NCBI GenBank assembly: GCA_027459745.1
Contig: DAIDHL010000003.1
Span: forward strand, 1,125-65,124
Length of the DNA: 64,000 nucleotides
Direction of reading: 5' to 3'
Source of the DNA: Candidatus Levyibacteriota bacterium
GTDB lineage: Bacteria; Patescibacteriota; Microgenomatia; Levybacterales; UBA12049
In this document: positions 29,363-48,503 of the stretch, in pieces
Numbering within the stretch: the stretch's first letter is position 1
Layout of the letters: every line of letters begins with the position of its first letter
Notes under the pieces: model-generated
What the model was told of the DNA's origin: nothing
The model's input: only the letters and a program-made list of their open reading frames with translations
Databases searched by the model: none
Program-made: the position numbers and the translations under genes

Positions 29363-29410
29363 ATGATAAGAAATCAAAACGTTATTATTGCTCTCATTAT
29401 TACCCGTTAA
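29363..29410 (+). CDS. ilv leader peptide MIRNQNVIIALIITR (15 aa; Ile/Val/Leu-rich)
   Basis: The run of cognate codons is GTT ATT ATT GCT CTC ATT ATT, and the stop sits 31 nt before an intrinsic terminator. Confidence 0.55.
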   Translation: MIRNQNVIIALIITR

Positions 29411-29441
29411 CGCGGTGTATTTGTGTTGAGCAAAACAAGTA

Positions 29442-29463
29442 CCCCGCCAAGCGGGGTTTTTTT
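29442..29463 (+). terminator. Attenuator terminator CCCCGC-CAA-GCGGGG + T7
   Basis: Perfect 6-bp GC stem followed by seven T residues, 12 nt upstream of the ilvB ATG. Confidence 0.6.
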
Positions 29464-29474
29464 ATGACAAAAAT

Positions 29475-31166
29475 ATGAAAAGCAAAAATATAAGCGGAGC
29501 CAAAGCAGTAATGGAATCTTTAATAGCCGAGCAGGTTGATACGATCTTTGGTTATCCAGGGGGAGCGATCATGCCAATTTATGATGCTTTATATGATTAT
29601 AAAGATCAGATCAAACATATTTTGGTCAGACATGAACAAGGTGCTGCCCATGCAGCTGAAGGATATGCCAGAACTAGTGGCAAAACAGGCGTATGCTTTG
29701 CCACATCTGGACCTGGAGCAACTAATCTCATTACCGGAATTGCCGACGCCATGCTCGATTCAGTTCCACTCGTGTGTATAACTGGTCAAGTTGCATCTCA
29801 TCTGGTAGGCACTGATGCGTTTCAGGAAGTTGACGTCATTGGTATAACCTCTTCTATAACCAAATGGAACTACCAAATTACCAAAAGGGAAGAAATTGAC
29901 TCGATCATCCACCAGGCCTTTAACATAGCTCAAAGCGGAAGGCCTGGACCGGTAGTAATCGACGTTACTAAAGATGCGCAGCTTAATTTGTTCTCCTATC
30001 AGGAAAAAAGGACAAAAAAATTTAATCACTCTAAAAAACGATTAAATAAAAGCACTTTGGACTCAATTGCGAGATTGATAAATCAAGCAGAGCGACCATT
30101 AATTCTGGCGGGTCATGGAATTTTAATTGCTAACGCGGAAACTGAACTAAAAAAATTTGTCGAAAAAACAGATATCCCTGTTGCTTGTACTTTACATGGT
30201 TTAACATCTATACCAGTTGATCATCCGAATTATGTGGGTATGCTGGGTATGCACGGCAATTATGCGCCCAATGTCTTAACCAATCAGGCAGATGTGATTA
30301 TAGCTATTGGCATGCGCTTTGATGATAGAGTCACTAGTGATACCCAAACTTACGCCAAACAAGCCAAAATTATACATATAGACATCGATGCCAGCGAATT
30401 TGATAAAAATGTAAAAACTAAACTAACTCTCCAAGCAGATGCTAAAGAGGCTCTAACAAACTTATTTCCGCTGATAAATAAAGCACAACACAGTGCTTGG
30501 TTGGAAAAATTTCGTCAACTTTATGACCAAGAGCACCTACAAGTTATAACTTCTGATATCAATCGACCGGATACCCAAACTGTCTCCATGGCTGAGGTTA
30601 TTCACCAACTGTCAGAAATTACCCAAGGTAATGCTATTATTGTGGCTGACGTGGGGCAGCATCAAATGGTCACTGCTAGATATTTTAAGCATACATACCC
30701 TAATCACTACTTAACATCAGGCGGTGCTGGCACAATGGGTTTTGCTTTACCGGCAGCAATAGGCGCGAAAGTAGCCAATCCTGACAAAGAAGTTATTGCA
30801 GTCATCGGAGATGGAAGTTTTCAAATGACACTACAGGAATTGGGAACGATTATGCAAGAAAATATTCCGGTAAAAATTATTATTCTTAACAATCATTACC
30901 TGGGTATGGTACGTCAGTGGCAGGAGTTATTCTTCACCAAACGTTATTCTTTTGTAAATATTGACAGTCCCGATTTCGTTGCTCTGGCGAAATCATATGG
31001 CATCATGGGCAATACAGTAATACACAAGTCTGATCTGAAAAAGTCACTGCAACTTCTATGGAAAAGTAAACAAGCTTATTTGCTAGAGGTAAAAGTGGTC
31101 AAAGAAACCAATGTTTTTCCTATGATACCAACAGGAGCAGCTGTCGATGAAATGCGTCTTGAATAA
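29475..31166 (+). CDS. ilvB: Acetolactate synthase large subunit (TPP enzyme)
   Basis: 563 aa with a TPP-binding fold. GDGSFQMTLQELGT near the C-terminus matches the GDG(x)24-27N region. Confidence 0.85.
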   Translation: MKSKNISGAKAVMESLIAEQVDTIFGYPGGAIMPIYDALYDYKDQIKHILVRHEQGAAHAAEGYARTSGKTGVCFATSGPGATNLITGIADAMLDSVPLVCITGQVASHLVGTDAFQEVDVIGITSSITKWNYQITKREEIDSIIHQAFNIAQSGRPGPVVIDVTKDAQLNLFSYQEKRTKKFNHSKKRLNKSTLDSIARLINQAERPLILAGHGILIANAETELKKFVEKTDIPVACTLHGLTSIPVDHPNYVGMLGMHGNYAPNVLTNQADVIIAIGMRFDDRVTSDTQTYAKQAKIIHIDIDASEFDKNVKTKLTLQADAKEALTNLFPLINKAQHSAWLEKFRQLYDQEHLQVITSDINRPDTQTVSMAEVIHQLSEITQGNAIIVADVGQHQMVTARYFKHTYPNHYLTSGGAGTMGFALPAAIGAKVANPDKEVIAVIGDGSFQMTLQELGTIMQENIPVKIIILNNHYLGMVRQWQELFFTKRYSFVNIDSPDFVALAKSYGIMGNTVIHKSDLKKSLQLLWKSKQAYLLEVKVVKETNVFPMIPTGAAVDEMRLE

Positions 31167-31169
31167 TCT

Positions 31170-31409
31170 ATGGAGAAAAAAATATTTACTATTACTATTG
31201 TTTCCCAAAATACACCTGGCGTTTTATACCGCATAGCGGGTATGTTTTTACGACGAAAAATTAATATCGAGTCATTGCATGTTAAAGCAACCTCACTTAA
31301 AACAAAAGCTAAATTTATTATAAAAGTCACTTCAAAGTTGGATATCGTAAAGGTTATGTGCAAACAAATGGAGAAAATCGTGGAAGTAGAGGAGGTTGTT
31401 TTGAAATGA
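31170..31409 (+). CDS. ilvN: Acetolactate synthase small subunit, minimal ACT-domain form
   Basis: IVSQNTPGVLYRIAGMFLRRKINIESLHV is an ACT domain. The ATGA overlap with ilvA suggests translational coupling. Confidence 0.65.
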   Translation: MEKKIFTITIVSQNTPGVLYRIAGMFLRRKINIESLHVKATSLKTKAKFIIKVTSKLDIVKVMCKQMEKIVEVEEVVLK

Positions 31410-32650
31410 CAATAACTATTCAACAAATCGACCAGGCAGCGAAAACTTTGGAGAAAGTTGTACAGCAAACACCATTACTGTATTCGAAACGTTTGTCTAA
31501 GCAGTATAAAGCCAATATCTACCTCAAGCGTGAAGACTTACAGGAGGTGCGCTCGTTTAAAATTCGCGGTGCATATAATAAGATCGCATCATTAACTGCT
31601 GATGAGAAGAGACGAGGAGTTGTTTGTGCCAGTGCAGGAAATCATGCGCAAGGTGTGGCTCTGGGATGTTTTCTGCAGAAAATAAAAGGGGTTATTTTTA
31701 TGCCCCGCGTTACGCCAAATCAAAAAATTGAAAAAGTAAAACAATTTGGCCAGAAGTATGTGGAGGTCAAATTGGTAGGCCAGACTTTTGATGATGCAAG
31801 TGCAGAATCGAAAATTTACACCCAACAGAATAATATGGTATACGTTCATCCTTTCGATGATCCTCTGGTTATTGCCGGACAGGGAACTGTAGGTAAAGAA
31901 ATTTTCGAACAATCCGCAGGTAATGTAGACATAGTTATTTCTCCTATCGGTGGGGGTGGTTTGACCTCGGGGATTTCCAGCTATCTAAAACAGAAAAATT
32001 CAAAAATAACAATCATCGGAACCGAACCCCAGGGGGCAGCCGGCATGCACTCTTCAGTAAGTAATGGCTCAGTGACATCATTGGAAACAATTGATACTTT
32101 TGTGGATGGCGCAGCAGTAAAAACTGTCGGGAATATGACTTTTGCCATATGCCAAAAATACGTTTCTAAAATCGTGACTATTCCTGAAGGTATGGACTGT
32201 ACGACCATGATAGAACTTTATCAAAAAGACGGCATCATCGCTGAACCCGCAGGAGCGTTAAGTATCTCGACTTTAGAAAAAATTAAAGATGAAATAAGAG
32301 GAAAAACTGTGGTTTGTGTGCTAAGTGGGGGAAACAATGATTTACTGCGCTATCCAGAAATTTTAGAACGAAGTCTGATCTATCTAGGCAGGAAGCATTA
32401 TTTCATCATCGAATTTGCCCAAAAGCCAGGTCAGTTACGTCAATTTGTAGACCAGGCGCTTGGCCCTACTGATGATATTGTGAGGTTTGAATATATTAAA
32501 AAAACAAACAAGGAAAAAGGTCCAGCTCTAGTGGGAGTAGAGTTACAAAACGCTAAAGATTACAATTCATTACTCAAACGTATGGATAAGATTGGTTTAC
32601 AATATAGAATTTTACAACAGGATGATTTACTGTATCAATATTTGGTATAA
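31406..32650 (+). CDS. ilvA: Threonine ammonia-lyase (biosynthetic-type, one C-terminal regulatory domain)
   Basis: PLP motif FKIRGAYNK. GNHAQGVA. A Gly-rich GGGG loop. SD GGAGG 10 nt upstream of the ATG at 31406. Confidence 0.8.
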   Translation: MTITIQQIDQAAKTLEKVVQQTPLLYSKRLSKQYKANIYLKREDLQEVRSFKIRGAYNKIASLTADEKRRGVVCASAGNHAQGVALGCFLQKIKGVIFMPRVTPNQKIEKVKQFGQKYVEVKLVGQTFDDASAESKIYTQQNNMVYVHPFDDPLVIAGQGTVGKEIFEQSAGNVDIVISPIGGGGLTSGISSYLKQKNSKITIIGTEPQGAAGMHSSVSNGSVTSLETIDTFVDGAAVKTVGNMTFAICQKYVSKIVTIPEGMDCTTMIELYQKDGIIAEPAGALSISTLEKIKDEIRGKTVVCVLSGGNNDLLRYPEILERSLIYLGRKHYFIIEFAQKPGQLRQFVDQALGPTDDIVRFEYIKKTNKEKGPALVGVELQNAKDYNSLLKRMDKIGLQYRILQQDDLLYQYLV

Positions 32651-32657
32651 ATAAGAT

Positions 32658-33038
32658 ATGCAACAGATTCAAACCAAGAAAGCACCTCAAGCCATTGGCC
32701 CTTACTCACAAGCTATCATGTTGGAAAATGGAACCATATATTGCTCAGGACAAATAGGGTTGAACCCACAAACCGGAGAATTAGCTTCGGGAATAGAGGC
32801 ACAAACCAAACAAATTATGCAAAATATTCAAGCTCTACTGGAAGAGTTAGGTTATTCACTGGAAAATATCTGCAAAACCACTATCTTCTTGACTGATATG
32901 AACGACTTTACAAAAGTGAATGAAATTTATGGCTCATTTTTCTCTACACACAAACCTGCCCGGTCAACCGTAGGGGTGGCTCAGTTACCAAAACATGCAT
33001 TAGTAGAAATCGAAGTGATTGCCTATAATAAAATTTGA
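32658..33038 (+). CDS. ridA: RidA (YjgF/TdcF) enamine/imine deaminase
   Basis: 126 aa. It begins APQAIGPYSQA and ends ARSTVGVAQLPKHALVEIEVIA. Confidence 0.75.
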   Translation: MQQIQTKKAPQAIGPYSQAIMLENGTIYCSGQIGLNPQTGELASGIEAQTKQIMQNIQALLEELGYSLENICKTTIFLTDMNDFTKVNEIYGSFFSTHKPARSTVGVAQLPKHALVEIEVIAYNKI

Positions 33039-33071: not shown

Positions 33072-33122
33072 ATGATAAATAGAACTCAAGTTGTTGTTGC
33101 TCTCCTTCTTATCCGTTCTTAG
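33072..33122 (+). CDS. Branched-chain-type leader peptide MINRTQVVVALLLIRS (16 aa)
   Basis: Codon run GTT GTT GTT GCT CTC CTT CTT ATC. The stop TAG overlaps a GCGGG element. Confidence 0.5.
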   Translation: MINRTQVVVALLLIRS

Positions 33123-33160
33123 CGGGTTAGATTTGGTGCAATAAACACACAAAATCATAT

Positions 33161-33181
33161 CCCGCGAAAGCGGGTTTTTTT
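33161..33181 (+). terminator. Attenuator terminator CCCGC-GAAA-GCGGG + T7
   Basis: GNRA-type loop. An upstream GCGGG copy at 33122-26 could form an antiterminator with CCCGC. Confidence 0.55.
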
Positions 33182-33826
33182 ATGGTAAATTTAGCAGAGA
33201 TAGAACCATCAATAAGATCATTTTCTACACCTTCAATAACTGAAGGAGGATTAGTAGTACCTCAAGCATTACCTATTCATGCTAGAGATAGATCGTTCTC
33301 AGATTTACGCAGAGTCCGATTTATAGACGCTGTAGATGAGGATCGTGGATACCCAATCTTAAAATACCTACCTCATTCTTCACAGCCAGTAATGTTTGGG
33401 ATACCACGAGGAGATCAACCAATCTATGGTGGAATATTGCGTAACATGGATCGTCATAATGTTGCATTATATGCACTAAACAAACAAATGGGTGGAGCAG
33501 AAAGAATAAGAACATATCTACGAGGATATTATGAAGTTAATAGACAAAAAAATGACCATTCGCGTCACATGGTTATCTTTGAAATGCATCCAGATGAGAA
33601 AGGCAAATTTGATCCAAAGGACTTACAGCCGGAAGAGTGGGGTTTTTTTGACCCTAACCAATATTTAACACAACAAAATATTCAAAGTATTATGTCTGCT
33701 GCAGCTGCTGATACATTAAGAGTTCAATATAGTAGAATATCTACGACAGCGTTTGAACAAAAAGCTCTTCAAGCCGAAAGAGCAGCTCGCAAGAAACATT
33801 CTTATTATGATCATCAAAGTGACTAA
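33182..33826 (+). CDS. Hypothetical protein (start uncertain; the ATG immediately follows the terminator T-run)
   Basis: 214-aa ORF with no recognisable motif. Confidence 0.4.
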   Translation: MVNLAEIEPSIRSFSTPSITEGGLVVPQALPIHARDRSFSDLRRVRFIDAVDEDRGYPILKYLPHSSQPVMFGIPRGDQPIYGGILRNMDRHNVALYALNKQMGGAERIRTYLRGYYEVNRQKNDHSRHMVIFEMHPDEKGKFDPKDLQPEEWGFFDPNQYLTQQNIQSIMSAAAADTLRVQYSRISTTAFEQKALQAERAARKKHSYYDHQSD

Positions 33827-38672: not shown

Positions 38673-39671
38673 ATGGATATACCTCCACTATTTCAAATCA
38701 CCAACAACATGTTAACCACTATTGCCCAAATAGAAGGATTGCGATCCTCATTGGAGATTACTCGAGTTCCTGATCTTATATTATCCCATTTACGTTCTGA
38801 AAGTTTGCTCAAAAGTTCTGTTTTTTCAGCTCAGATCGAAGGCAATACATTATCCGTTCAAGATATTCAAAATAGAGAATCAGAAAAAAATGAAACTGAT
38901 TACCAGCATCAAGAAGTTGAAAATATTATTAATGCTTTATCACTAATGCGAGAAAATGAACTTCCGCAAATTATTGATTTGGACTTCATATTAACATTAC
39001 ATAAACAAGTCATGCATAACTTGGTACATTCATCTCAAGCCGGAAAATTAAGACGGGAACCTAGTGCTATTTTTGATCAATCAGGCAATGTCGTTTATAT
39101 GACACCTCCTCCTTCACAATTAGAACCGCTGCTTTCAGATCTACTGCGTTTGATTAATCAATCTGATAATATCTTTCCTCTGATTAAAATTGCGCTTGTG
39201 CATCTCTGTTTTGAAAAAATTCATCCTTTCTTAGATGGCAATGGTAGGGTAGGTAGATTGATTATTCAAGCTTTGCTCGCCAAACATAATTATCATTTTC
39301 AGTGGTTACTTTCCATTGAAGAAGGCTTACAAGAGAAAAAACAAACCTATTATGTTTTGCTTGATAGAAATGATGCCAGTGAATTTATCGAATTCTTTTT
39401 GTCTGTGATTTTAGATGAAGCGGAAAAGTTAAAAGCTAATTTAAGTAATATTAACAATCCACAACCGCAAGATTTTCTTTTACCTCGGAGGAAAGAGATT
39501 TTAAATATTATTACAGAGCAAAATATAGTGTCTTTTGATCAATTACACCGTAGATTTTTAAAAATTCCTGATCGTACTCTGCGTTATGATCTACAACAGT
39601 TAGAAAAGGCTGGCTTTATACAAAAAGTCGGCACGACCAGAGGAGCAATGTATCAAGTTATCAAACATTAA
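38673..39671 (+). CDS. Fic family protein (class II) with C-terminal wHTH
   Basis: HPFLDGNGRVGRLI Fic motif. The N-terminal inhibitory motif is SAQIEGN. Confidence 0.8.
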   Translation: MDIPPLFQITNNMLTTIAQIEGLRSSLEITRVPDLILSHLRSESLLKSSVFSAQIEGNTLSVQDIQNRESEKNETDYQHQEVENIINALSLMRENELPQIIDLDFILTLHKQVMHNLVHSSQAGKLRREPSAIFDQSGNVVYMTPPPSQLEPLLSDLLRLINQSDNIFPLIKIALVHLCFEKIHPFLDGNGRVGRLIIQALLAKHNYHFQWLLSIEEGLQEKKQTYYVLLDRNDASEFIEFFLSVILDEAEKLKANLSNINNPQPQDFLLPRRKEILNIITEQNIVSFDQLHRRFLKIPDRTLRYDLQQLEKAGFIQKVGTTRGAMYQVIKH

Positions 39672-39740
39672 GTATTATTTGACAAAGCTATTATGTTTTG
39701 TTAGCATAAACCAACTATGTGCAAACTACTTAATATTTTT

Positions 39741-39767
39741 ATGACCGGTACAACTACCTCTGTTTAG
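39741..39767 (+). CDS. Thr-rich leader peptide MTGTTTSV (8 aa)
   Basis: ATG ACC GGT ACA ACT ACC TCT GTT TAG. The stop overlaps GCGGGG (39767-72). A TTGACA hexamer lies at 39678. Confidence 0.45.
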   Translation: MTGTTTSV

Positions 39768-39794
39768 CGGGGTTGTATTGATGTGCAATAGATA

Positions 39795-39816
39795 CCCCGC
39801 AAAGCGGGGTTTTTTT
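39795..39816 (+). terminator. Attenuator terminator CCCCGC-AAA-GCGGGG + T7
   Basis: Perfect 6-bp stem and a T7 run. The upstream GCGGGG copy supports an antiterminator alternative. Confidence 0.55.
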
Positions 39817-39847
39817 ATGGTTTGATACCTAAAGAAAGGAGGAAAAA

Positions 39848-40087
39848 ATGGCAAAAGAAATAAAACTTGATGATTTTCATTTTGTCTCACCAGATGTGAG
39901 AGGACAGATTGTACCTGATTTTTATGAAAGACTAATTATCAGACAACCTGATCCACGTTTCAATCTTGATAGCCAAAATTATTTTGGAGCTCAAAGAAAA
40001 GATAAATTACCCAAAGCTTGTTTGGCAAAAGATAGGGCAAGAATCGATTCTATAAGAGCTCAACTAAAAATAGTTGCTAGACAATAA
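39848..40087 (+). CDS. Hypothetical small protein (strong SD)
   Basis: AAAGGAGGAAAAAATG. 79 aa. Confidence 0.45.
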   Translation: MAKEIKLDDFHFVSPDVRGQIVPDFYERLIIRQPDPRFNLDSQNYFGAQRKDKLPKACLAKDRARIDSIRAQLKIVARQ

Positions 40088-40166
40088 TGATGAAAGCAGT
40101 AGAATGGTGGACGCTAGCTACCATTGTCTGCTTTATAAAAGCTCGAGTTTTTGCTATATTACAAAC

Positions 40167-41924
40167 ATGAACACATCAGATAATTTACAAAATCTACGTC
40201 ACACCAGTGCACATCTATTAGCTGCTGCTGTGCAAAAGCTTTATCCCGATGCTAAAAGAGCGATTGGTCCAGCCATTGAATCTGGTTTTTATTACGATTT
40301 TGAGTTTAATAAACCACTTACGGAAGAAGATTTACCCAAAATTGAGGAAGAGATGAAAACGATTCTCAAGACTTGGACAAAAACTGACCATCGAGAAGTA
40401 ACAAACAATGAAGCAATGAAACAATTTAACAATGAGCCTTATAAACTTGAACTAATTGAGGAATTTGCTAAAGAAGGAAAAACATTAACGATCTATAAAA
40501 ATGGCGAGTACGAAGACTTATGCAAAGGCGGCCATGCAGAGAATCCTGCCAAAGAAATTGGCGCTTTCAAACTTTTATCTCTGGCCGGCGCCTATTGGCG
40601 AGGCAGTGAAAAAAATAAAATGTTGACCAGAATTTATGGTACAGCTTTTTCTACTCAAGCTCAACTTGATGAATATTTATTGATGCAAGAAGAAGCCAAA
40701 AAAAGAGATCACAAAAAACTTGCTTCACAACTTGAACTATTCTTCTTTGATGATACTGCTCCTGGTATGGCTTATTGGTTACCCAAAGGGCTAACTCTAT
40801 ATAACACCTTGTATTCTTTTGCTCGAGAAATGTATAGAAAATATGGCTATCAGGAAGTTGCAACTCCTCAGCTCAATAAAAAAGAATTGTATGAAACTTC
40901 TGGTCATTGGGCACATTATCGAGATGATATGTTTTTATCACCCATGAGTTATTTGAGAGATGAATCAGACAATCCCATGGAGGGCAGCGAAGTATTTGGT
41001 GTAAAACCTATGAACTGTCCCAATCACATGCGTATATTTGCACATAAAACACGTTCATATCATGATTTGCCTTTGCGCTTAGCAGAAACGACGAGCCTAC
41101 ATAGATTTGAACTCTCTGGCACATTAAATGGTTTGTTTAGAATCAGACAATTTCGCCAGGATGATGCCCACATCTTTATTTATCCTGAGCAGGCTAAACA
41201 AGAATTTGAGAGTTTACTAAAAATGATTGAAGAAATGTATTCGCCATTTAATTTAACTTACCGCTTCAGATTTGGTACCAGACCAGACAGTCATTTGGGA
41301 GAAGCTTCTGACTGGGATATTGCAGAGGATGTATTACGAAAAGTTCTGAACGCGTCAGGTAAAGAATATTTTGAATTAGCGGGAGAAGGAGCATTTTATG
41401 GCCCTAAAGTCGATATTTTAATGAAAGATTCACTAGGTCGTGAATGGCAGACAGGCACAATTCAGTTGGATATTCAACAACCCAAACGCTTTGGGCTGCA
41501 CTATATAGACAGTGAAGGAAGTGAAAAAATGCCATTTGTCTTTCACAGAGCTATAGTAGGATCATTTGAACGCTTCTTAGGTATCTTAATTGAACACTTC
41601 GCCGGAGTGTTTCCATTATGGATGGCACCTATCCAAGTTGCGCTTCTTCCGATAGCAGATAGGCACGTCGAATACGCGCAGAAAGTCAAGAAGCAGCTTG
41701 AGCAACATGATATCCGAGTAGAAGTATCCGATAATGCTGATACCCTCCAGGCCAAGATACGCAACGCTACTTTACAAAAAGTACCACTTATGGGTATAAT
41801 AGGGGATAAGGAAATAGCTGCAGAAGCTATTTCTGTCCGTTCAAGAGCCGGAGAAAACTTGGGTAGCCAAGCAATCAACGACTTTTTGCAGAAAGTTAAA
41901 CAAGACATTGATAAAAAGATTTAA
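40167..41924 (+). CDS. thrS: Threonine--tRNA ligase lacking the N1 (TGS) domain
   Basis: The editing-domain HxxxH motif (HTSAHLLAAA) is near the N-terminus. Class II core and anticodon-binding domain follow. Start chosen at MNTSDN. Confidence 0.85.
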   Translation: MNTSDNLQNLRHTSAHLLAAAVQKLYPDAKRAIGPAIESGFYYDFEFNKPLTEEDLPKIEEEMKTILKTWTKTDHREVTNNEAMKQFNNEPYKLELIEEFAKEGKTLTIYKNGEYEDLCKGGHAENPAKEIGAFKLLSLAGAYWRGSEKNKMLTRIYGTAFSTQAQLDEYLLMQEEAKKRDHKKLASQLELFFFDDTAPGMAYWLPKGLTLYNTLYSFAREMYRKYGYQEVATPQLNKKELYETSGHWAHYRDDMFLSPMSYLRDESDNPMEGSEVFGVKPMNCPNHMRIFAHKTRSYHDLPLRLAETTSLHRFELSGTLNGLFRIRQFRQDDAHIFIYPEQAKQEFESLLKMIEEMYSPFNLTYRFRFGTRPDSHLGEASDWDIAEDVLRKVLNASGKEYFELAGEGAFYGPKVDILMKDSLGREWQTGTIQLDIQQPKRFGLHYIDSEGSEKMPFVFHRAIVGSFERFLGILIEHFAGVFPLWMAPIQVALLPIADRHVEYAQKVKKQLEQHDIRVEVSDNADTLQAKIRNATLQKVPLMGIIGDKEIAAEAISVRSRAGENLGSQAINDFLQKVKQDIDKKI

Positions 41925-42498
41925 TCGAAATCAAGATCAAAGAAAGCAATACCATATCAATGACCGCATTTATTCGGTAACATTGAGGGTACTTGATGCC
42001 GAAGGTAAACAGATCGGTATCATGGGGAAACATGAAGCACTGAGACTGGCAGCAGAACAAAATGTTGATGTAGTCGAAATTGTACCTAATGCAAATCCGC
42101 CCGTAGCCAAACTGATTGATTTCCAGAAATTTTTGTATCAAGAACAGAAAAAGAAGCAAGAGGAAAAACGCAAAGCTAAGACAACTGAGACAAAAGAAGT
42201 AAGATTGGGACCTTTTATGTCTGATAATGACTTACAAGTCATGATGAGACGAGCAAGAGAGTTCCTAAATAACGGTGATAAAGTAAGAATGGTTTTGAGA
42301 TTTCGCGGCCGTCAGATTACTCATCCAGAATTTGGATACAAGATGATGAGTAAAATGATTGAAGGCTTAGATGACATTTCAAAAGTAGACCGTGAACCTC
42401 ACTTAGAGGGTCACCAAATGGTTGGATTATTATCTGTAGAAAGGAATAAAAAAAATGAAAAAGAAGAAAATAAGCAAAGCAGCGGCCAGACGGTTTAA
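41908..42498 (+). CDS. infC: Translation initiation factor IF-3 (non-ATG start likely)
   Basis: YSVTLRVLDAEGKQIGIM...EIVPNANPPVAKLIDFQKF. The frame begins with TTG and overlaps the thrS end. Confidence 0.8.
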   Translation: MIKRFNRNQDQRKQYHINDRIYSVTLRVLDAEGKQIGIMGKHEALRLAAEQNVDVVEIVPNANPPVAKLIDFQKFLYQEQKKKQEEKRKAKTTETKEVRLGPFMSDNDLQVMMRRAREFLNNGDKVRMVLRFRGRQITHPEFGYKMMSKMIEGLDDISKVDREPHLEGHQMVGLLSVERNKKNEKEENKQSSGQTV

Positions 42499-42652
42499 AA
42501 TTACCAAAACAGGTAAGGTCATGTTTGCCCACCAATATGGCAGTCACAAAAAGTTAACTAAATCTAAACGTAGAATTCGTCGCCAAAAAGAACCAGCCCA
42601 GTTGCACGGAAGATTTGCATTTAAGATTAAAAAGATTTTAGGAGCAGCATAA
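42455..42652 (+). CDS. rpmI: 50S ribosomal protein L35
   Basis: MKKKKISKAAARRFKITKTGKV. 65 aa. Confidence 0.75.
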   Translation: MKKKKISKAAARRFKITKTGKVMFAHQYGSHKKLTKSKRRIRRQKEPAQLHGRFAFKIKKILGAA

Positions 42653-42653
42653 T

Positions 42654-43004
42654 ATGGCAAGAGTAAAACGCGGGATGGTCTCCCGAAGAAAACATAATAA
42701 ATTACTTAAATTAGCTAAAGGCTATACGGGTACTAAGGGTCGTTTGGTCAGAACAGCAAAGCAAGCTGTTTTGCATGCAGGAGCTTATGCCTTCCATGGC
42801 CGCAAACTTCGCAAAAGAGATTTCCGTTCATTATGGATCACTCGCATCAGTGGTGCAGTCAAACAACAAGGTCTTTCTTATAGTGTTTTTATGAATAAGT
42901 TACAAAAGTCTAATATCGTTCTTGACCGCAAGATTTTGAGTGATTTGGTCGTCAATGATCCAGCTGCCTTCAAACATATAGTTGACACAGTTAAAGCAAA
43001 ATAA
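42654..43004 (+). CDS. rplT: 50S ribosomal protein L20
   Basis: MARVKRGMVSRRKHNKLLKLAKGYTG... is a canonical L20. Confidence 0.9.
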   Translation: MARVKRGMVSRRKHNKLLKLAKGYTGTKGRLVRTAKQAVLHAGAYAFHGRKLRKRDFRSLWITRISGAVKQQGLSYSVFMNKLQKSNIVLDRKILSDLVVNDPAAFKHIVDTVKAK

Positions 43005-43010
43005 TATTAT
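42982..43010 (+). promoter_or_regulatory. Promoter TTGACA-17-TATTAT inside the rplT 3' end, driving a leaderless pheM-like leader
   Basis: The -10 ends at 43010; the leader ATG is at 43017. Confidence 0.45.
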
Positions 43011-43016
43011 AAATGC

Positions 43017-43088
43017 ATGAACTCACGTATTAACAATTCTTTTTGGTTTTACTTTACTTCCCCAACCGGGAGGCTTGTTAGTGCTTAA
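43017..43088 (+). CDS. Aromatic/Phe-rich leader peptide MNSRINNSFWFYFTSPTGRLVSA (pheM-like)
   Basis: FWFYF codon run. It contains GGGAGG (43068-73), which matches the terminator 3' half. Its position after rplT is the same as E. coli pheM. Confidence 0.5.
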   Translation: MNSRINNSFWFYFTSPTGRLVSA

Positions 43089-43117
43089 GCACTAACATTG
43101 GAGTAATCCAACTTAGA

Positions 43118-43140
43118 CCTCCCGAAAGGGAGGTTTTTTT
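43118..43140 (+). terminator. Attenuator terminator CCTCCC-GAAA-GGGAGG + T7
   Basis: Perfect 6-bp stem, GNRA loop and seven T residues. Confidence 0.55.
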
Positions 43141-43191
43141 GTACTTATTTTTCAAAACATATTAACAAATATGAGAAAGGAGGTGAAATAC

Positions 43192-43473
43192 ATGTCAGTT
43201 GAAATAAACTCGAGTAAAGGATTAGATGTTGTACGCAAAATTGCAGCAAAAAGAAGGAGTGGCTTTATTATTAGTAATGATTCACTATCTCAAGCAGAAG
43301 TTACATTAGGCCAACGACATTCAAATGCAAACAGAAGAACTCGTTATGATGCTAGTTTACTACAACAAGCATCTGAACACGTTCCAGCTAGTTTGATGAC
43401 CGATGTTGTTAACAATGGATTAGCCATTTTGGTTGATTATACTGGAAATCTCTCGTTAAGAAGAGAACAGTAG
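43192..43473 (+). CDS. Hypothetical small protein (very strong SD AAAGGAGGTGA)
   Basis: 93-aa ORF. Confidence 0.45.
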   Translation: MSVEINSSKGLDVVRKIAAKRRSGFIISNDSLSQAEVTLGQRHSNANRRTRYDASLLQQASEHVPASLMTDVVNNGLAILVDYTGNLSLRREQ

Positions 43474-43506
43474 AGAGAAATAAATAAGAAAGGAGGTGAG
43501 AATATT

Positions 43507-43923
43507 ATGTCACCAGAAATAAAAAAAGATGGAATTATAATTGCGAATGTTCCTGACAAAACAGGAACCTACGTAACTATAAACGGAATCAGCTTATATG
43601 TGAACACCGATCAAATCGATGCTCATAATAACAAACAACAAATCGCTCTTGATTGTGCTGAAATAGGGGGTAAACGCGTTATTGGCTTAACTCAAGAGGG
43701 TAAAGGGAAAAGTTCTGATCTTAAACGAGGAGATGGTAAACTACCGGAGATTGATGTGGTTTTAAACGACCGGCCAATTCGTGTGTCATATACTAGAGTT
43801 CAGCATGAAAGATATAGACCGCATGGATGGGGACTTTGGGGAGAACCGAGCCGAACTATAAAAACAGTACGAAAAGAGACTTACCGTAATCCAAATTGGC
43901 GAAATGGATACAGGGGTAGGTAA
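43507..43923 (+). CDS. Hypothetical protein (very strong SD AAAGGAGGTGA)
   Basis: 138-aa ORF. Confidence 0.45.
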   Translation: MSPEIKKDGIIIANVPDKTGTYVTINGISLYVNTDQIDAHNNKQQIALDCAEIGGKRVIGLTQEGKGKSSDLKRGDGKLPEIDVVLNDRPIRVSYTRVQHERYRPHGWGLWGEPSRTIKTVRKETYRNPNWRNGYRGR

Positions 43924-44011
43924 AACTGTTATACTGGGGTTAATTAATAGCGCACCCCAGCCTAAACAGTGAAAAATGTGTTAAATTATGTTACTCTTTT
44001 AGCTGAAACGT

Positions 44012-45160
44012 ATGTATTTTAAAACCGCCAAACGCTTAGAATTATTTTCAGAATATGTCTTTGCTAAAATTGGCAGGGAAGTGGCCAAAATCGAGAAAGA
44101 GGCTGGTAAAAAGGTACTCAATTTCGGCATTGGTTCTCCTGACGTGCCGACCAGTGAAATTTATTTAGACAAATTGGAAGAATATTTGCATGATGGCAAA
44201 ATGCATTTGTATCCGGGTTTTCGTGCATGTAAGGAATTGTCTGAAGCCTTAATCAGTTGGTATCAACAAAGATTTAATGTTGATTTAAATTCAGATGAAT
44301 TATTGCCATTGTTGGGCGCTAAAGAAGGAATCGCCCATTTGCCTTTGGCTTTATTAAATGAAGGAGATGAGATATTAATTCCCAATCCAGGTTATCCAGC
44401 CTACACCGATCCGGCCTTAATGATCGGGGCTAAACCGATTTATTATGATTTAACGGATAACGAAACAAATCCGATTGATTTAACATCCCTATCAAAATTA
44501 ATAACACCTAAAACTAAATGTATGTGGGTAAATTTTCCGTCTAACCCGACTGGAAAAATAATAACTCTATCAGCTTTGGAGGAATTAGTAGAGTTTGCTA
44601 AAAAGCACAATTTAATAATTCTTTATGACAATGCTTATGCCGAAATTACCTTTGATGGGAATAAAGCACCCAGTATTTTACAAATTAAAGGAGCCAAAGA
44701 CATTGCCATTGAGATAGGTTCATTTTCTAAAACGTATTCGTTCGCTGGTTTACGTATGGGTTGGATTGTGGGGAATAAACAAATTGTCGATGCTCTGGCC
44801 AAAGTAAAATCACAAGTTGATTCAGGCATGTGGTTACCTTTACAAAAACTTGGTGCTTATGCACTGACTAATCCTGATCTGGTTTGGCAGAAACAAATGT
44901 TAGAAAGTTATCAACTCAGAAGAGATATTATAGCTAAAAAGCTTAAAACACTTGGTCTGATATTTGAATTACCACGCGGAGCTTTATATATTTGGGCCAA
45001 AATTCCGGATACATATAAAAATTCAGAAGAATATTCCATGCACATTCTACACGAGAAAAAAATTCTTTTGACACCAGGTACCGCCTTCGGTTCCAATGGA
45101 GAACGCTTTGTCAGAGTAAGTTATTGTGTAAATATAGAGGGGATAGAGAGGTATTTTTAA
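44012..45160 (+). CDS. Class I/II PLP-dependent aminotransferase (LL-DAP/aromatic aminotransferase-like)
   Basis: NPGYPAYTDPA... and the PLP-lysine motif SFSKTYSFAGLRMGW. Confidence 0.75.
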   Translation: MYFKTAKRLELFSEYVFAKIGREVAKIEKEAGKKVLNFGIGSPDVPTSEIYLDKLEEYLHDGKMHLYPGFRACKELSEALISWYQQRFNVDLNSDELLPLLGAKEGIAHLPLALLNEGDEILIPNPGYPAYTDPALMIGAKPIYYDLTDNETNPIDLTSLSKLITPKTKCMWVNFPSNPTGKIITLSALEELVEFAKKHNLIILYDNAYAEITFDGNKAPSILQIKGAKDIAIEIGSFSKTYSFAGLRMGWIVGNKQIVDALAKVKSQVDSGMWLPLQKLGAYALTNPDLVWQKQMLESYQLRRDIIAKKLKTLGLIFELPRGALYIWAKIPDTYKNSEEYSMHILHEKKILLTPGTAFGSNGERFVRVSYCVNIEGIERYF

Positions 45161-45166
45161 TAGTTA

Positions 45167-45283
45167 TTGTCATCCCGAGCGAACGTAGTGAGTCGAGGGA
45201 TCTCTCGTGGATGCGAGAAACTTCACACATAAAATGTGAGATTCCTCCACTCCTTCACTTTGCTCAGTAGGTCGGAATGACAA
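45167..45283. repeat. 117-bp imperfect-palindromic MITE/REP-like element (copy A) between the aminotransferase and pheS
   Basis: Termini TTGTCATCCCGAGCGAAC...GTCGGAATGACAA. The core carries two small hairpins (TCTCG-TGGATG-CGAGA and TCACA-TAAAA-TGTGA). Confidence 0.5.
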
Positions 45284-45338
45284 TTTATCAAAATTAAAAA
45301 TTGGAAATTATTCAATATAGTATTATAATTAACACATT

Positions 45339-46373
45339 ATGGAAGAGGAATTATTGAGAATTAAAAACAACGCCATTTCACTCATCCTGGAAGCTAAAAG
45401 CAAACAAGAATTAAATGAAATCAAACTTCAATTTGTCGGACGTAGTGGTGAACTAACTAAAATATTTAAAGAAATAACCAAACTCTCTCCAGATAAGAAA
45501 GCTGAAGTAGGTAAAAAAATCAACGAAACCAAACAAATTGTCGAAAATTTAATCAACCAAACCGAGGCCAAACTTGGTGAAAAAGCCAGACAGCGAGTCG
45601 CCCATAATATTGACGTTACTGATCCGGCCGTCCTTCCTCCACTTGGACATTTACATCCAGTCACTCAGGTCATCGAAGAGATAACCAACATTTTCGAGCG
45701 TATCGGTTTTACCCGTGAACGTTATCCTGAAATTGATTTTGATTGGTTTGCATTTGAAGCACTAAATTTTCCCCAAGATCATCCAGCAAGAGATGACTGG
45801 GAAACGTTTTTTATAAGACAACAACCTGATCCCAAACATGGACCGGTTGTATTAATACCGCATACTTCAAACGGACAAATCCGAGAAATGTTAAATAAAG
45901 AACTACCTATCAAAATGTTAAATATTGCCAAGACTTATCGACGACAATCTGATGTTTCACACGCTGCGATGTTCCATCAGTTTGAAACTCTAGTCGTAGG
46001 CAAGAATATCTCCATAGTCCATTTAAAAGGTACTTTGGATTATTTTGTAAAATCATATTTCGGTGCCGATAGAAAAACTAGAATTAGACCATATCATTTT
46101 CAATTTACCGAACCTTCATTTGAAGTTGATATTTCTTGTGGAGTGTGTGATGGAAAGGGCTGTAAACTTTGCAAAGCTGGTTGGCTCGAATTGGGTGGGG
46201 CAGGGATGGTCCATCCAAATGTTCTAAAAGCATGTAATATCGATCCCAACGAATATTCAGGTTTTGCCTCAGGATTTGGTGTGGAACGAGTTCTAATGAT
46301 GCGTGAGGGTTTGCAGATAGATGATCTACGAACGTTGTATGGAAATAAGCTAGAGTTTCTAGAACAGTTTTAA
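45339..46373 (+). CDS. pheS: Phenylalanine--tRNA ligase alpha subunit
   Basis: Class II core motifs (FQFTEPSFEVD, GAGMVHPNVL). Confidence 0.9.
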   Translation: MEEELLRIKNNAISLILEAKSKQELNEIKLQFVGRSGELTKIFKEITKLSPDKKAEVGKKINETKQIVENLINQTEAKLGEKARQRVAHNIDVTDPAVLPPLGHLHPVTQVIEEITNIFERIGFTRERYPEIDFDWFAFEALNFPQDHPARDDWETFFIRQQPDPKHGPVVLIPHTSNGQIREMLNKELPIKMLNIAKTYRRQSDVSHAAMFHQFETLVVGKNISIVHLKGTLDYFVKSYFGADRKTRIRPYHFQFTEPSFEVDISCGVCDGKGCKLCKAGWLELGGAGMVHPNVLKACNIDPNEYSGFASGFGVERVLMMREGLQIDDLRTLYGNKLEFLEQF

Positions 46374-46377
46374 CGCA

Positions 46378-46494
46378 TTGTGATCCCGACCGACTGAGCA
46401 AAGTGAAGGAGTGGAGGAATCTCTCGCGAATGCGAGAAAAATTGCACATAAAGTGCGAAATCCCTCGGCTCACTCCGTTCGCTCGAGATGACAG
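46378..46494. repeat. 117-bp MITE/REP-like element (copy B) between pheS and pheT
   Basis: Its arms are about 90% identical to the opposite arms of copy A. The core is in the same orientation, with compensatory hairpin changes. Confidence 0.5.
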
Positions 46495-46511
46495 ATCAAC
46501 AAATAAAACAT

Positions 46512-48503
46512 ATGAACATAAAAATACTTGATTCTTGGTTAAGAGAATATTTACAAACAGATGCTACTGCATACGAAGTGGCCAAGCAGATCTCGCTGAC
46601 AAGTGTCTCAATTGAAAGAGTAGAGAAGCACAAAGATGACTTTATTTACGATATTGAAGTAACGACCAATCGTCCCGACTTGGCTAGCGTTAACGGCTTG
46701 GCACGAGAAGCGGGAACTGTATTACCACAGAATGGGATAAGAGCCATTTATAAACCCCTTGTCCTTATGCACGAAGAGAAACAATCTAGTACAAACAATG
46801 AGATTGCTTCGTCGTCTTTAACTCCTGTCCATGACTTATTAAAAATTGAACTTGCTATCAAAGCCGTCAACCGTGTATGTGCGGTTGTAATGGACGTAAA
46901 AATTGACAAATCGCCTGAGCAAGTTATTGAAAGACTCGAGACTAGTGGGATTCGAAGTTTAAATAACTTGATAGATATTACCAACTATGTCATGCGGGTA
47001 ACCGGACAACCAACGCATGTGTTTGACTACGACCGCTTAGGGGGAACAGAACTAACTATTCGAGAAGCCAAAACCGGAGAAGAAATCACCACACTTGATA
47101 ATAAAACATACACACTTAATGGGGGAGAAGTAATAGCAGAAAACGAAAAGGGCGAAATAGTTGATTTATTAGCTATCATGGGTCTAAAAAACAGTGTAGT
47201 GACCGAACAAACCAAGCGTATCGTTTTCTTTGTCAATAATATTGACTCAAACAAAATTAGAAAAGCTTCCATGAATCTAGGTATCCGAACTGAAGCAGCT
47301 CAATTAAATGAAAAACATTTAGATCCCAACCTTTGTGAAGTAGCACTACAATATGGAATTCAACTTTATCAAGAATTAGCCGAGGGTAAAGTTGTCAGTC
47401 CTATCATAGACCTTTATCCGCATGCATCTGAAGAAAAACAGGTCGTCGTCAGTTTGGCTAAGATAAACAGCGTAATCGGCATCGACATATCCGCAGAAAA
47501 ATCGATTGATATTTTGACTAAATTAGGTTTCCAGGTCCAGCAAGAAGAAGACAACTTATATGTAACTGTGCCTACTATTCGCGCTTATGATGTTACTCTT
47601 CCCGAAGATATTATCGAAGAAATCGCTCGTGTCTATGGCTATCACAATTTACCAGTAGAGCTTCCTTCACTAAATACACAACAAGCTATACAACAGGAAA
47701 AAAATCCTTTTTACTGGGAACAAAGAATCAAAAATACCTTAAAATATTGGGGATTTACCGAAACTTACACCTATTCCATGATACCCGAGAACCTCTATGA
47801 AGGTCCTCTGAATGAAGCGGTTACCATTTCCAACCCCCTCAATGAAGAGTTCGTTTATATGCGCAATACCTTGATACCAAGCTTATTGCGTGTAGTTAGT
47901 GAGAACAAAAGTTATGAACAAGTCAAGATTTTTGAGATTGCCAACGTTTATCAGAAAAGACAAAATAAATTGCCGGAAGAAATCAGAATGCTAGCGGGAG
48001 TAATTAAGCAAAAACAAATCTCATTTTTTGTAGTTAAAGGTTACTTACAACAGCTATTTAATGATCTGGGAGTTAATAATTATGAGTTTAAACCGTCAGA
48101 TCAAGGCGGAGATGGCACAAAAATCTATGTTGCGGAAAAATATCTTGGAGATATAGAAATTTTAGATGAAAATTTAATTGACTTCGAACTTAATTTTGAA
48201 TTGTTAATAGCCCATGCCTCCCTGAGAAAAACCTATATTCCTGCCAGTAAATTCCCTCCTGTCCTTGAAGATATTTCTTTGGTGATCCCGGCAGATATTT
48301 TGACTCAGGAGGTTATAGATTTAATTAAAAAACAAAGTTCTTTAATCGTTAATGTTGAATTAATAGACCGCTATGAAAATAACCGAACTTTCCATGTTAT
48401 ATATAGGGATAATGAAAAGAATTTAACACAAGATGAAATAAAGACTCTGCATGAAAAAATCCTTTCTTCCCTCAAAAAGAAATGGCAAATTAAGGAAGAG
48501 TAA
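46512..48503 (+). CDS. pheT: Phenylalanine--tRNA ligase beta subunit (short form)
   Basis: MNIKILDSWLREYL is a canonical PheT N-terminus, and the C-terminal ferredoxin-fold domain is present. Start placed after the repeat. Confidence 0.85.
   Translation: MNIKILDSWLREYLQTDATAYEVAKQISLTSVSIERVEKHKDDFIYDIEVTTNRPDLASVNGLAREAGTVLPQNGIRAIYKPLVLMHEEKQSSTNNEIASSSLTPVHDLLKIELAIKAVNRVCAVVMDVKIDKSPEQVIERLETSGIRSLNNLIDITNYVMRVTGQPTHVFDYDRLGGTELTIREAKTGEEITTLDNKTYTLNGGEVIAENEKGEIVDLLAIMGLKNSVVTEQTKRIVFFVNNIDSNKIRKASMNLGIRTEAAQLNEKHLDPNLCEVALQYGIQLYQELAEGKVVSPIIDLYPHASEEKQVVVSLAKINSVIGIDISAEKSIDILTKLGFQVQQEEDNLYVTVPTIRAYDVTLPEDIIEEIARVYGYHNLPVELPSLNTQQAIQQEKNPFYWEQRIKNTLKYWGFTETYTYSMIPENLYEGPLNEAVTISNPLNEEFVYMRNTLIPSLLRVVSENKSYEQVKIFEIANVYQKRQNKLPEEIRMLAGVIKQKQISFFVVKGYLQQLFNDLGVNNYEFKPSDQGGDGTKIYVAEKYLGDIEILDENLIDFELNFELLIAHASLRKTYIPASKFPPVLEDISLVIPADILTQEVIDLIKKQSSLIVNVELIDRYENNRTFHVIYRDNEKNLTQDEIKTLHEKILSSLKKKWQIKEE

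Follow-up and report, generated by a model that had tools for sequence, protein, structure and literature searches.

Organization of the rplT-pheS region

The DNA considered here is a stretch of 64,000 nucleotides (nt) of contig DAIDHL010000003.1 from a Candidatus Levyibacteriota bacterium; it is called the window, and all coordinates given without a locus label are positions in it. Between rplT, the gene of ribosomal protein L20, and the genes pheS and pheT (pheST) lies an element (42982-43140) which, as judged from sequence and modelling, is very probably a ribosome-mediated (leader-peptide) transcription attenuator that senses charged tRNA-Phe and controls the genes located before pheS. It probably senses the charging of tRNA-Tyr and tRNA-Trp as well.

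The open reading frames (ORFs) and their Pfam matches give the gene order thrS-infC-rpmI-rplT-(leader)-two small ORFs-aminotransferase-pheS-pheT (Table 1), to be compared with thrS-infC-rpmI-rplT-pheM-pheS-pheT in Escherichia coli K-12. An earlier reading of the letters (the sequence-only reading) had noticed the E. coli-like order thrS-infC-rpmI-rplT-(leader)-pheS-pheT, the pheM-like, Phe-rich leader and terminator after rplT, and the two small genes with strong Shine-Dalgarno (SD) sites and the aminotransferase that separate the attenuator from pheS. The order agrees with the ORFs, Pfam and the K-12 map, all of these features are present, and the leader element recurs in relatives. The best relatives of the RplT protein (60-79% identity) come mostly from Candidatus Levybacteria/Levyibacteriota or Patescibacteria, i.e., from Microgenomates of the candidate phyla radiation (CPR). 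Look-ups with the exact sequences of RplT and of the 138-residue protein of small gene 2 (Table 1) retrieved no recorded contig. The loci and contigs of relatives that were compared are labelled with L-numbers (L001, L121 etc.).

Table 1. Features of the rplT-pheT region and other attenuators of the window
Feature	Position	Strand	Remarks
rplT (ribosomal protein L20)	42654..43004	+	ORF; 79% identical relatives in Levybacteria genomes; last gene of thrS-infC-rpmI-rplT
Putative leader promoter	42982..43010	+	TTGACA-17 nt-TATTAT; 11/12 matches; ends 6 nt 5' of leader ATG
Leader ORF	43017..43088	+	MNSRINNSFWFYFTSPTGRLVSA; 23 codons + stop; no SD
Regulatory codons (proposed ribosome stalling site)	43041..43055	+	TTT TGG TTT TAC TTT (F W F Y F); most conserved columns of alignments A1 and A2
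Hairpin 1:2 (anti-antiterminator)	43057..43073	+	CTTCCC 43057-62 / GGGAGG 43068-73; -8.2 kcal/mol; 5' arm within leader codons
Antiterminator 2:3	43067..43124	+	CGGGAGG 43067-73 / CCTCCCG 43118-24; -29.8 kcal/mol before segment 4 is transcribed
Intrinsic terminator 3:4	43115..43140	+	AGACCTCCC-GAAA-GGGAGGTTT + 7 T; 9-pair stem 43115-43136, T-run 43134-43140
Small gene 1	43192..43473	+	93 residues, 1 Phe; SD GGAGG 43179-43183, 8 nt before ATG
Small gene 2	43507..43923	+	138 residues, 0 Phe; SD GGAGG 43492-43496, 10 nt before ATG
Class I/II pyridoxal-phosphate aminotransferase	44012..45160	+	382 residues; Pfam Aminotran_1_2, E = 7e-63
MITE-like element (about 125 nt)	45168..45293		Terminal inverted repeats TGTCATCCCGA...TCGGAATGACA; between aminotransferase and pheS
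Promoter-like site of pheS	45301..45329	+	TTGGAA-17 nt-TATAAT; TATAAT 45324-45329; ends 9 nt before pheS ATG
pheS	45339-46373	+	Pfam (pheS and pheT together) tRNA-synt_2d, Phe_tRNA-synt_N, B3_4, B5, FDX-ACB
MITE-like element, second copy	46368-46493		Opposite orientation; between pheS and pheT
pheT	46488-48503	+	671 residues; Pfam matches given with pheS
Ile/Val attenuator	29363-29463	coding	Leader ORF 29363-29410, peptide MIRNQNVIIALIITR; TTGCAT/TATAAT promoter on ATG; GCGG/CCCCGC/GCGGGG + T-run
Val/Leu attenuator	33072-33181	coding	Leader ORF 33072-33122, peptide MINRTQVVVALLLIRS; T-run abuts ATG of 33182-33826
Thr attenuator	39679-39817	coding	Leader ORF 39717-39767, peptide MCKLLNIFMTGTTTSV; terminator 39794-39817; match of model R1

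Anatomy of the leader

The leader ORF begins immediately downstream of rplT, its ATG lying 13 nt past the rplT stop codon, and the -35 box of the putative leader promoter is contained in the 3' end of rplT. In relatives, an extended -10 box (TGATAnnnT) that takes in the rplT stop codon TGA lies 7-12 nt ahead of the leader ATG (e.g., TGATAAGAT, TGATATAAT, and TGATAGAAT). SD sites are absent upstream of all the leader ORFs, in the window and in the relatives, and the leader peptide would be translated from a leaderless or nearly leaderless mRNA. Among the 63 ORFs of at least 90 codons in the window, a GGAGG-type SD site is found in 3 and a -10-like box right before the ATG (within about 15 nt) in 29; strong SD sites are thus as atypical of this DNA as the sequence-only reading had noted. 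Since -10-like boxes are common and SD sites rare at the ORF starts, the genome appears to rely largely on leaderless mRNAs.

Four segments follow the regulatory codons: segment 1 (CTTCCC, in the leader codons), segment 2 (GGGAGG), segment 3 (CCTCCC), and segment 4 (GGGAGG, with the T-run). Segment 2 pairs with either segment 1 or segment 3, and segment 3 with either segment 2 or segment 4, i.e., the antiterminator and the terminator are mutually exclusive. The antiterminator encloses two small hairpins (43077-43096 and 43098-43111). The terminator, which scores -14 to -15 kcal/mol, probably also ends the transcript of the rplT operon. A cluster of regulatory codons, a downstream terminator, an exclusive antiterminator, and the geometry of stalling and stopping are all found in the sequence and the masking model described below; together they make up the defining anatomy of a leader-peptide attenuator.

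The following mechanism may be proposed. Transcription would start a few bases ahead of the ATG, from the promoter that overlaps the 3' end of rplT, and a ribosome would translate the leaderless 23-codon ORF. When Phe is plentiful, the ribosome would reach the TAA at 43086 and cover segment 2 (43068-73); segment 3 (CCTCCC, 43118-23) would then be free to pair with segment 4 (GGGAGG, 43128-33), the terminator would form, and transcription would stop at the T-run. When Phe-tRNA is scarce, the ribosome would stall at 43041-55, melting or blocking segment 1 (43057-62), segment 2 would pair with segment 3 before segment 4 is made, and RNA polymerase would read through. With no ribosome on the leader, hairpin 1:2 would hold segment 2, and the terminator would form again. 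Read-through would express the two SD-bearing small genes (43192-43473 and 43507-43923) and probably also the aminotransferase gene (44012-45160).

Conservation of the leader

An aromatic-rich short ORF with a terminator is present in 24 of the 38 closest Levybacteria loci, usually directly 3' of rplT, and the other 14 have rplT-pheS without any leader. Counting second copies and two more distant Microgenomates, there are 30 genome leaders in all. A scan of metagenome sequences with the exact pattern yielded the same leader in 26 of 28 stretches, mostly with rplT upstream. The pattern x(5-15)-F[WY]F[YF]FTS or FFFTFA is kept in 29 further genome leaders and in the 26 metagenome leaders. The peptides fall into two classes. 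Those of the first (...F[WY]F[YF]FTS) stop there or run on through the codons forming hairpin 1:2, and those of the second end in ...FFFTFA-stop (L002, L004, L023, and L025). In the nearest relative, L121 (82% identity across the region), the stretch that begins with the aromatic codons and ends with the T-run hardly differs from that of the window, while the N-terminal codons and the spacer diverge.

A covariance model, R1, was built on 23 leaders, the window's own among them; it scores the window at 86.6 bits, a value obtained within its training set. R1 also matches the E. coli pheM attenuator end to end (38.8 bits, E = 1.2e-5). The Rfam model Phe_leader (RF01859) aligns with the window over its full length at 31.3 bits (E = 0.033), below its gathering score of 55. 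At the gathering thresholds of Rfam the window contains tRNAs only, with no Phe_leader and no T-box; the T-box model RF00230 has no match in the window at its gathering threshold and none at E ≤ 10 in 39600-46600.

The GGGAGG/CCTCCC arms are also used by the Ile, Thr, and Leu leaders of this lineage. In many of the attenuators the 3' arm of the terminator (GGGAGG or GCGGGG) and the T-run stand 7-8 nt before an ATG, e.g., at L006 6455-6472, L015 6470-6488, and L002 918-935, and in the window at 29451-29466 and 33166-33185. In such cases the arm could double as the SD site of the downstream gene, coupling transcriptional and translational control.

Folding, covariation, and ribosome masking

The fold of the 134-nt leader has -42.6 kcal/mol (z = -5.1), and none of 200 shuffled sequences is as stable. 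Covariation was evaluated on alignment A3, which is fitted to the model, comprises 62 attenuators including leaders for other amino acids, and leans towards the model. Hairpin 1:2 and the terminator are 91.6% paired on this alignment, with compensatory changes in 13 of 14 pairs (6/6 in hairpin 1:2 and 7/8 in the terminator); these values are reached in none of 500 shuffles. The antiterminator, which is outside the model, has 78% of its cells paired across the 62 sequences, compared with at most 62% when it is slid, and its covariation score exceeds those of all 500 shuffles. In the Phe leaders alone, pairing in the two helices amounts to 87% and 81%, and compensatory changes are few, since the four segments hardly vary.

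In the masking model, the ribosome covers the mRNA up to a point 12 nt beyond the first base in the A site. When it is placed at the stop codon, the minimum-energy fold contains the terminator in each of the 30 leaders; as long as segment 4 has not been made, segment 3 is then mostly unpaired. When it is placed on the aromatic codons, segments 2 and 3 pair with probabilities of 0.4-1.0 over the 30 leaders (0.85 in the window). The terminator itself is present in all 30. For the window transcript up to 43127, the antiterminated fold has -29.8 kcal/mol, and a ribosome at the stop codon leaves -3.9 kcal/mol with segment 3 free.

The small genes behind the leader

Both small genes carry AAAGGAGGTGA upstream, and the same SD site recurs at small genes that follow other attenuators. 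The sequence-only reading took these strong SD sites as a sign of foreign or highly expressed genes. They do not point to either, as genes that follow a transcribed 5' leader need an SD site in a genome of mostly leaderless mRNAs. Its suggested check by base composition likewise gives no signal of foreign DNA in the inserted genes: the G+C content is 0.35-0.41 here, compared with 0.36-0.42 in the neighbours. A phage or defence origin is not supported either, as PHROGs and PADLOC give no match; the proteins of 93 and 138 residues, and one of 79 residues behind the Thr leader (see below), have no match in Pfam, NCBIfam, PHROGs, or PADLOC.

The 93-residue protein has no homolog in a search of 5.8 billion proteins. 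Its homolog in L121 (43% identity, E = 6e-25), in the same place behind the same leader, indicates that the ORF is a real gene.

The 138-residue protein belongs to a family of 24 proteins at E ≤ 0.001 in 5.8 billion clusters, the window's own among them, and of 44 representatives among 1.84 billion proteins. Four sequences in the weak tail of the latter search (P0054, P0055, P0057, and P0064) were judged spurious, being unrelated repetitive beta-rich surface proteins. The family has a mean column identity of 51%. Phe accounts for 3 of its 2897 residues (0.10%), compared with 4.3% in the long ORFs of the window, and Tyr and Trp are normal. The AlphaFold2 model of the 138-residue protein is all-beta with a mean predicted local distance difference test score (pLDDT) of 85.8; a Foldseek search of this model against the PDB gave nothing better than E = 1.5, and the family profile has no match among PDB sequences.

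No residue is as depleted as Phe in the 19 small ORFs found behind Phe leaders (1.25% vs 4.22%, P = 1e-13); the small ORFs behind Thr, Ile, or Leu leaders contain 2.0-3.5% Phe. Avoidance of the cognate amino acid in small ORFs holds for Phe, Leu, and two of four Thr cases, and fails for Ile, L024, and L005. With these exceptions, the notion that small ORFs behind a leader always lack its cognate amino acid is not maintained as a general rule and is confined to the hypothesis discussed below.

Homologs of the 138-residue protein occur in more distant Microgenomates, whose RplT is about 60% identical. In seven of eight contexts a T-box lies directly upstream of the homolog (63-92 bits, E ≤ 1.6e-11; the Rfam gathering score is 93). 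UUC (Phe) is aligned at the specifier position of these T-boxes, several of which have a very short stem I. A different candidate for the specifier, GGGAAGTTCCC, was rejected, as the Rfam alignment places it in stem IIA/B, and UUC lies in the stem I loop. The partners of the T-box-led homologs are pheST (L081 and L084), a major facilitator superfamily (MFS) transporter (L085 and L090), and an amino-acid kinase (L093). Two unrelated Phe sensors are thus found before the same gene family, which is strong evidence that the family belongs to a response to Phe limitation. Contig L085, which carries one of the homologs, has a second T-box leader (3511-3791) upstream of a 110-residue ORF and a prephenate-dehydrogenase-like gene.

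Variable genes in the rplT-pheS gap

The backbone thrS-infC-rpmI-rplT-[gap]-pheS-pheT, followed by the gene for penicillin-binding protein PBP1 on the opposite strand, is constant among the relatives, while the gap is variable. Three arrangements may be distinguished behind the leader. In the first, the leader is followed by aromatic biosynthesis genes, including a 3-deoxy-D-arabino-heptulosonate 7-phosphate (DAHP) synthase-like gene in 11 genome loci and 15 metagenome stretches. The DAHP synthase of L006 carries Pfam DAHP_synth_1; according to BLAST clustering, dehydroquinate-synthase-like and further shikimate-pathway-like genes come after the DAHP synthase. L021 has a Phe leader followed by genes for DAHP synthase, chorismate mutase, an aminotransferase, and a fused prephenate dehydrogenase/dehydratase, and then by pheS. 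In the second arrangement, one to three small ORFs with strong SD sites precede pheS (the window, L002, L009, L010, L019, L023, L025, L027, L036, L037, and L062). In the third, pheS is directly behind the leader (L013 and L044). Of the 26 metagenome leaders, 15 have a DAHP-synthase-like gene within 2.5 kb, about half of these genes being a divergent subtype without a Pfam match of its own, and 7 have pheS within 0.25-0.6 kb.

In L121 the order is rplT - leader - homolog of the 93-residue gene - pheS, without the 138-residue gene and without the aminotransferase, and the 138-residue family is found in none of the other 37 Levybacteria loci. The lineage of the window therefore seems to have gained these two genes later. 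Thus, of the insertion proposed in the sequence-only reading, the acquisition of some of the genes finds support and their foreign origin does not. The rplT-pheS slot, as compared across these loci, appears as a general site for Phe-regulated genes in this lineage.

Aminotransferase and pheST

Neither a -10 box nor an SD site is found directly before the aminotransferase gene, and its co-transcription with the small genes is plausible. The best NCBIfam models for the protein are LL-diaminopimelate aminotransferases, and an assignment as DapL was rejected, as the scores are far below the cut-offs (382 vs 507 bits for NF006756 and 375 vs 593 bits for TIGR03540). Over its full length (379 residues) it is 63% identical to the product of L021 8052-9203, a gene standing between CM_2 and PDH_N+PDT genes in a cluster that begins with a Phe leader. 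The enzyme probably acts on Phe/Tyr, the only evidence on its specificity being this context of the L021 ortholog. The context agrees with the aromatic aminotransferase considered possible in the sequence-only reading, but the neighbours in the PDB are mixed, comprising uncharacterised, aspartate, aromatic (1dju, 1e-54), prephenate (5wmh, 4e-36), and LL-diaminopimelate aminotransferases. A tblastn search with the aro and phe enzymes of the relatives found no other aromatic-pathway genes in the window.

Between the aminotransferase and pheS, and again between pheS and pheT, stands an element resembling a miniature inverted-repeat transposable element (MITE). Similar elements (GTCATCC...GGAATGAC) occur in the rplT-pheS gaps of L014 and L018. 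A -10 box, often of the form TGnTAnnnT, is present 5-9 nt before the pheS ATG in most relatives, with or without intervening genes. Since such a box lies close to the pheS ATG in the window and in most relatives, pheST is probably independent of the leader and served mainly by its own promoter. Separation of pheST from the leader by a promoter and a terminator of its own, which the sequence-only reading had named as an observation that would count against its view, is found in part: the promoter-like site is there, but no intrinsic terminator is predicted between 43140 and pheS.

PheT is short (671 residues), with domains B1 (weak), B3_4, B5, core, and FDX-ACB; it has no Pfam match to the tRNA-binding domain (B2/tRNA_bind) usual in bacterial PheT.

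Weighing of the explanations

Several observations weigh against the proposed attenuator. It is known here from comparison of sequences and from modelling. The leader has no SD site, so that its translation depends on a putative leaderless start, and the run mixes Phe, Trp, and Tyr codons, which blurs the specificity. Covariation is modest in the Phe leaders alone, the strong figures coming from the model-fitted alignment of mixed amino acids. In no modelled state of the window leader does the antiterminator exceed the terminator form in stability at equilibrium (about -29.8 vs -32.7 to -39.8 kcal/mol); since the terminator form is never the less stable one at full length, the switch must be kinetic, with the antiterminator forming first, as in the classical cases. 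Moreover, hairpin 1:2 is weak, the ribosome-free truncated transcript already favours the antiterminator (0.84 paired), and basal read-through could be high. As regards the depletion of Phe, small hydrophilic proteins are generally poor in aromatic residues, and Tyr is also low in the 19 ORFs (ratio 0.47).

Would a mere intrinsic terminator of the thrS-infC-rpmI-rplT operon, with the short ORF present by chance, account for the element? Standing 111 nt past the end of rplT (stop codon), the terminator would end the operon transcript, and loci without the leader, e.g., L001 and L016, have a plain terminator there. This explanation is hardly tenable, however: the aromatic codons, the frame, the position of the stop codon, and the two alternative helices are conserved in 56 sequences, the promoter-like site is positioned on the ATG, and the z-score of the fold is -5.1. 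The comparative data already contradict it. It is another matter whether the attenuator belongs by descent to pheST, as an ancestral pheM-type element which was separated from its target by later insertions and still governs it through read-through over 43017-48503. The position is that of E. coli pheM, the peptides are alike (FFFYFST vs FWFYFTS), R1 cross-matches pheM, a Phe leader directly precedes pheS in L044 and L013, and in L081 and L084 a Phe T-box, a 138-residue homolog, and pheST come in close succession; the absence of two of the three genes from L121 and the lack of a predicted terminator up to pheS point the same way. Nevertheless, most relatives, among them those with intervening genes, share with the window the -10 box 5-9 nt before the pheS ATG, a MITE-like element lies between the aminotransferase and pheS, and 14 of the 38 closest loci have rplT-pheS without a leader. 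In about half of the leaders the first gene is a DAHP synthase or an aro operon and not pheS, and the shared GGGAGG/CCTCCC arms, which recur in the Ile, Thr, and Leu leaders, are probably a convergent likeness. The ancestral pheM-pheST unit of the sequence-only reading, possible in itself, is on this account rather doubtful.

The leader might instead derive from an aro/phe operon in the rplT-pheS gap, most of which the lineage of the window has lost, keeping the leader, an aminotransferase remnant, and small ORFs of little or no function. This is unlikely, although the 11 genome loci and 15 metagenome stretches with DAHP-synthase-like genes behind the leader speak for it, as do the mixed F/W/Y codons, which suit control of the common aromatic pathway, the orthology of the aminotransferase with one inside such a cluster, the absence of other aro genes from the 64 kb, and the 93-residue ORF without a homolog among 5.8 billion proteins. 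Against it, the 138-residue family is well conserved (51%), has a confident fold, and stands behind its own Phe T-box in other lineages; the 93-residue gene is conserved in L121, an optimal SD site is kept by both small genes, and the avoidance of Phe indicates selection on translation during Phe shortage. The loss of the aro genes is, furthermore, judged from the 64-kb window. Most likely, the leader governs the genes lying between it and pheS and not pheST. The regulation of the inserted genes, as anticipated in the sequence-only reading, is supported by the Phe-free 138-residue family and the Phe (UUC) T-boxes of its homologs.

Comparison with known systems

Leader-peptide attenuation is textbook biology from Proteobacteria. 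CPR bacteria are usually viewed as metabolically minimal and poor in regulation, and a search within a library of papers found none on leader-peptide attenuation in Patescibacteria/CPR.

The E. coli pheM/pheST attenuator is, like that of the window, located directly after rplT in the same operon order, and the two have in common a short ORF containing a run of aromatic codons, alternative hairpins, and a terminator made of CCTCC/GGAGG arms and a T-run. In contrast to the window, where 2.2 kb with three genes and a MITE-like element intervene and pheS has its own -10 box, pheM adjoins pheS. The window leader further differs in having no SD site, in being apparently leaderless, and in mixing Trp and Tyr codons with those for Phe, and in relatives leaders of this type often precede aromatic biosynthesis genes. 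Because the shared arms also occur in the Ile, Thr, and Leu leaders, and in many relatives the 3' arm is placed where it can act as an SD site, the likeness to pheM may reflect convergence and lineage-specific constraints rather than shared descent.

The E. coli pheL/pheA leader (RF01859) resembles the FFFTFA-stop class of the relatives, its peptide ending in ...FFFTFP-stop with the last codons serving as the 5' arm of a hairpin, and it controls Phe biosynthesis, as the leader described here does in relatives. The window departs from RF01859 in scoring 31.3 bits against the required 55, in missing the long 1:2 helix of that model, and in having no pheA-type gene behind the leader.

Phe-specific T-box riboswitches control pheST in Firmicutes. 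The Phe T-box shares with the window system the outcome, antitermination in response to uncharged tRNA-Phe, and in L081 and L084 it shares the rplT-pheS slot and the first gene (the 138-residue family). Unlike these loci, the window has no T-box, and sensing would be by a translating ribosome and not by direct binding of tRNA. Mycobacteria have leaderless, cysteine-rich regulatory short ORFs, in which, as in the window, a short ORF on a leaderless mRNA senses one amino acid; organism and amino acid are different, and the window has a canonical terminator/antiterminator switch.

A possible Phe-limitation response

A wider interpretation may be put forward tentatively, and it may well prove wrong: Levybacteria and related Microgenomates could have amino-acid-specific starvation regulons, in which a sensor drives small, fast-evolving proteins that avoid the sensed amino acid, while the synthetase gene keeps its own promoter. 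The 138-residue family would then be a new effector of Phe limitation. A T-box or, on a leaderless mRNA, a leader-peptide attenuator would serve as the sensor, and the all-beta 138-residue family, being found twice beside an MFS transporter, might act, e.g., in uptake or scavenging from the host. The window contains a parallel for Thr, with a Thr leader, a 79-residue ORF without Thr, and thrS preceded by a -10 box of its own.

Genes that follow a Phe leader or Phe T-box would belong to the Phe-limitation response, which offers a handle on genes of unknown function and singles out the Phe-free 138-residue family as a candidate starvation effector in an episymbiotic lineage. Four attenuators in one 64-kb window and dozens in relatives suggest that individual amino acids are sensed through translation on leaderless mRNAs. 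The elements may also be used to annotate the amino-acid metabolism retained by some Levybacteria (aro, ilv, and thr genes).

Other attenuators in the window and in relatives

The weaker matches of R1 are all on the coding strand and, on inspection, are leader-peptide attenuators for other amino acids; three of them are in the window (Table 1). The Ile/Val leader directly precedes a thiamine pyrophosphate enzyme of acetolactate-synthase architecture (29475-31166), which is followed by a threonine dehydratase gene (31406-32650) and a RidA-like gene (32658-33038). The Val/Leu leader precedes a 214-residue protein (33182-33826) that has no match in Pfam, PHROGs, or PADLOC. Behind the Thr leader lies the 79-residue orphan ORF (39848-40087), with a strong SD site and no Thr. 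The likely start of thrS is the ATG at 40167, with an extended -10 box of its own (TGCTATATT) 6 nt upstream, a layout like that at pheS.

Two further ORFs of at least 90 codons have a GGAGG-type SD site, one starting at 31406 and the other at 19155-19526. The latter encodes a protein of 123 residues with a signal-peptide-like N-terminus behind a long untranslated region; it was considered as the target of another attenuator and rejected, none being found upstream.

Leaders of the relatives are rich in Ile, Thr, Leu, and possibly Cys or Met. They precede genes for threonine dehydratase, threonine synthase, aspartokinase-like and cysteine synthase-like proteins, and thrS (most of these names come from reading of the N-terminal sequences), or small ORFs. 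Examples, at L037 2944-2988, L031 1083-1133, L036 55-117, and other sites, include MIITTNVMMQMKAS, possibly for Met, and MRKSHVIICTCTTIPS before a cysteine-synthase-like gene, possibly for Cys or Thr. Leu-rich leaders (MNRNFLLITLSLLLIEER) precede ORFs of 73-80 residues that are poor in Leu (2.6% vs 9.5%).

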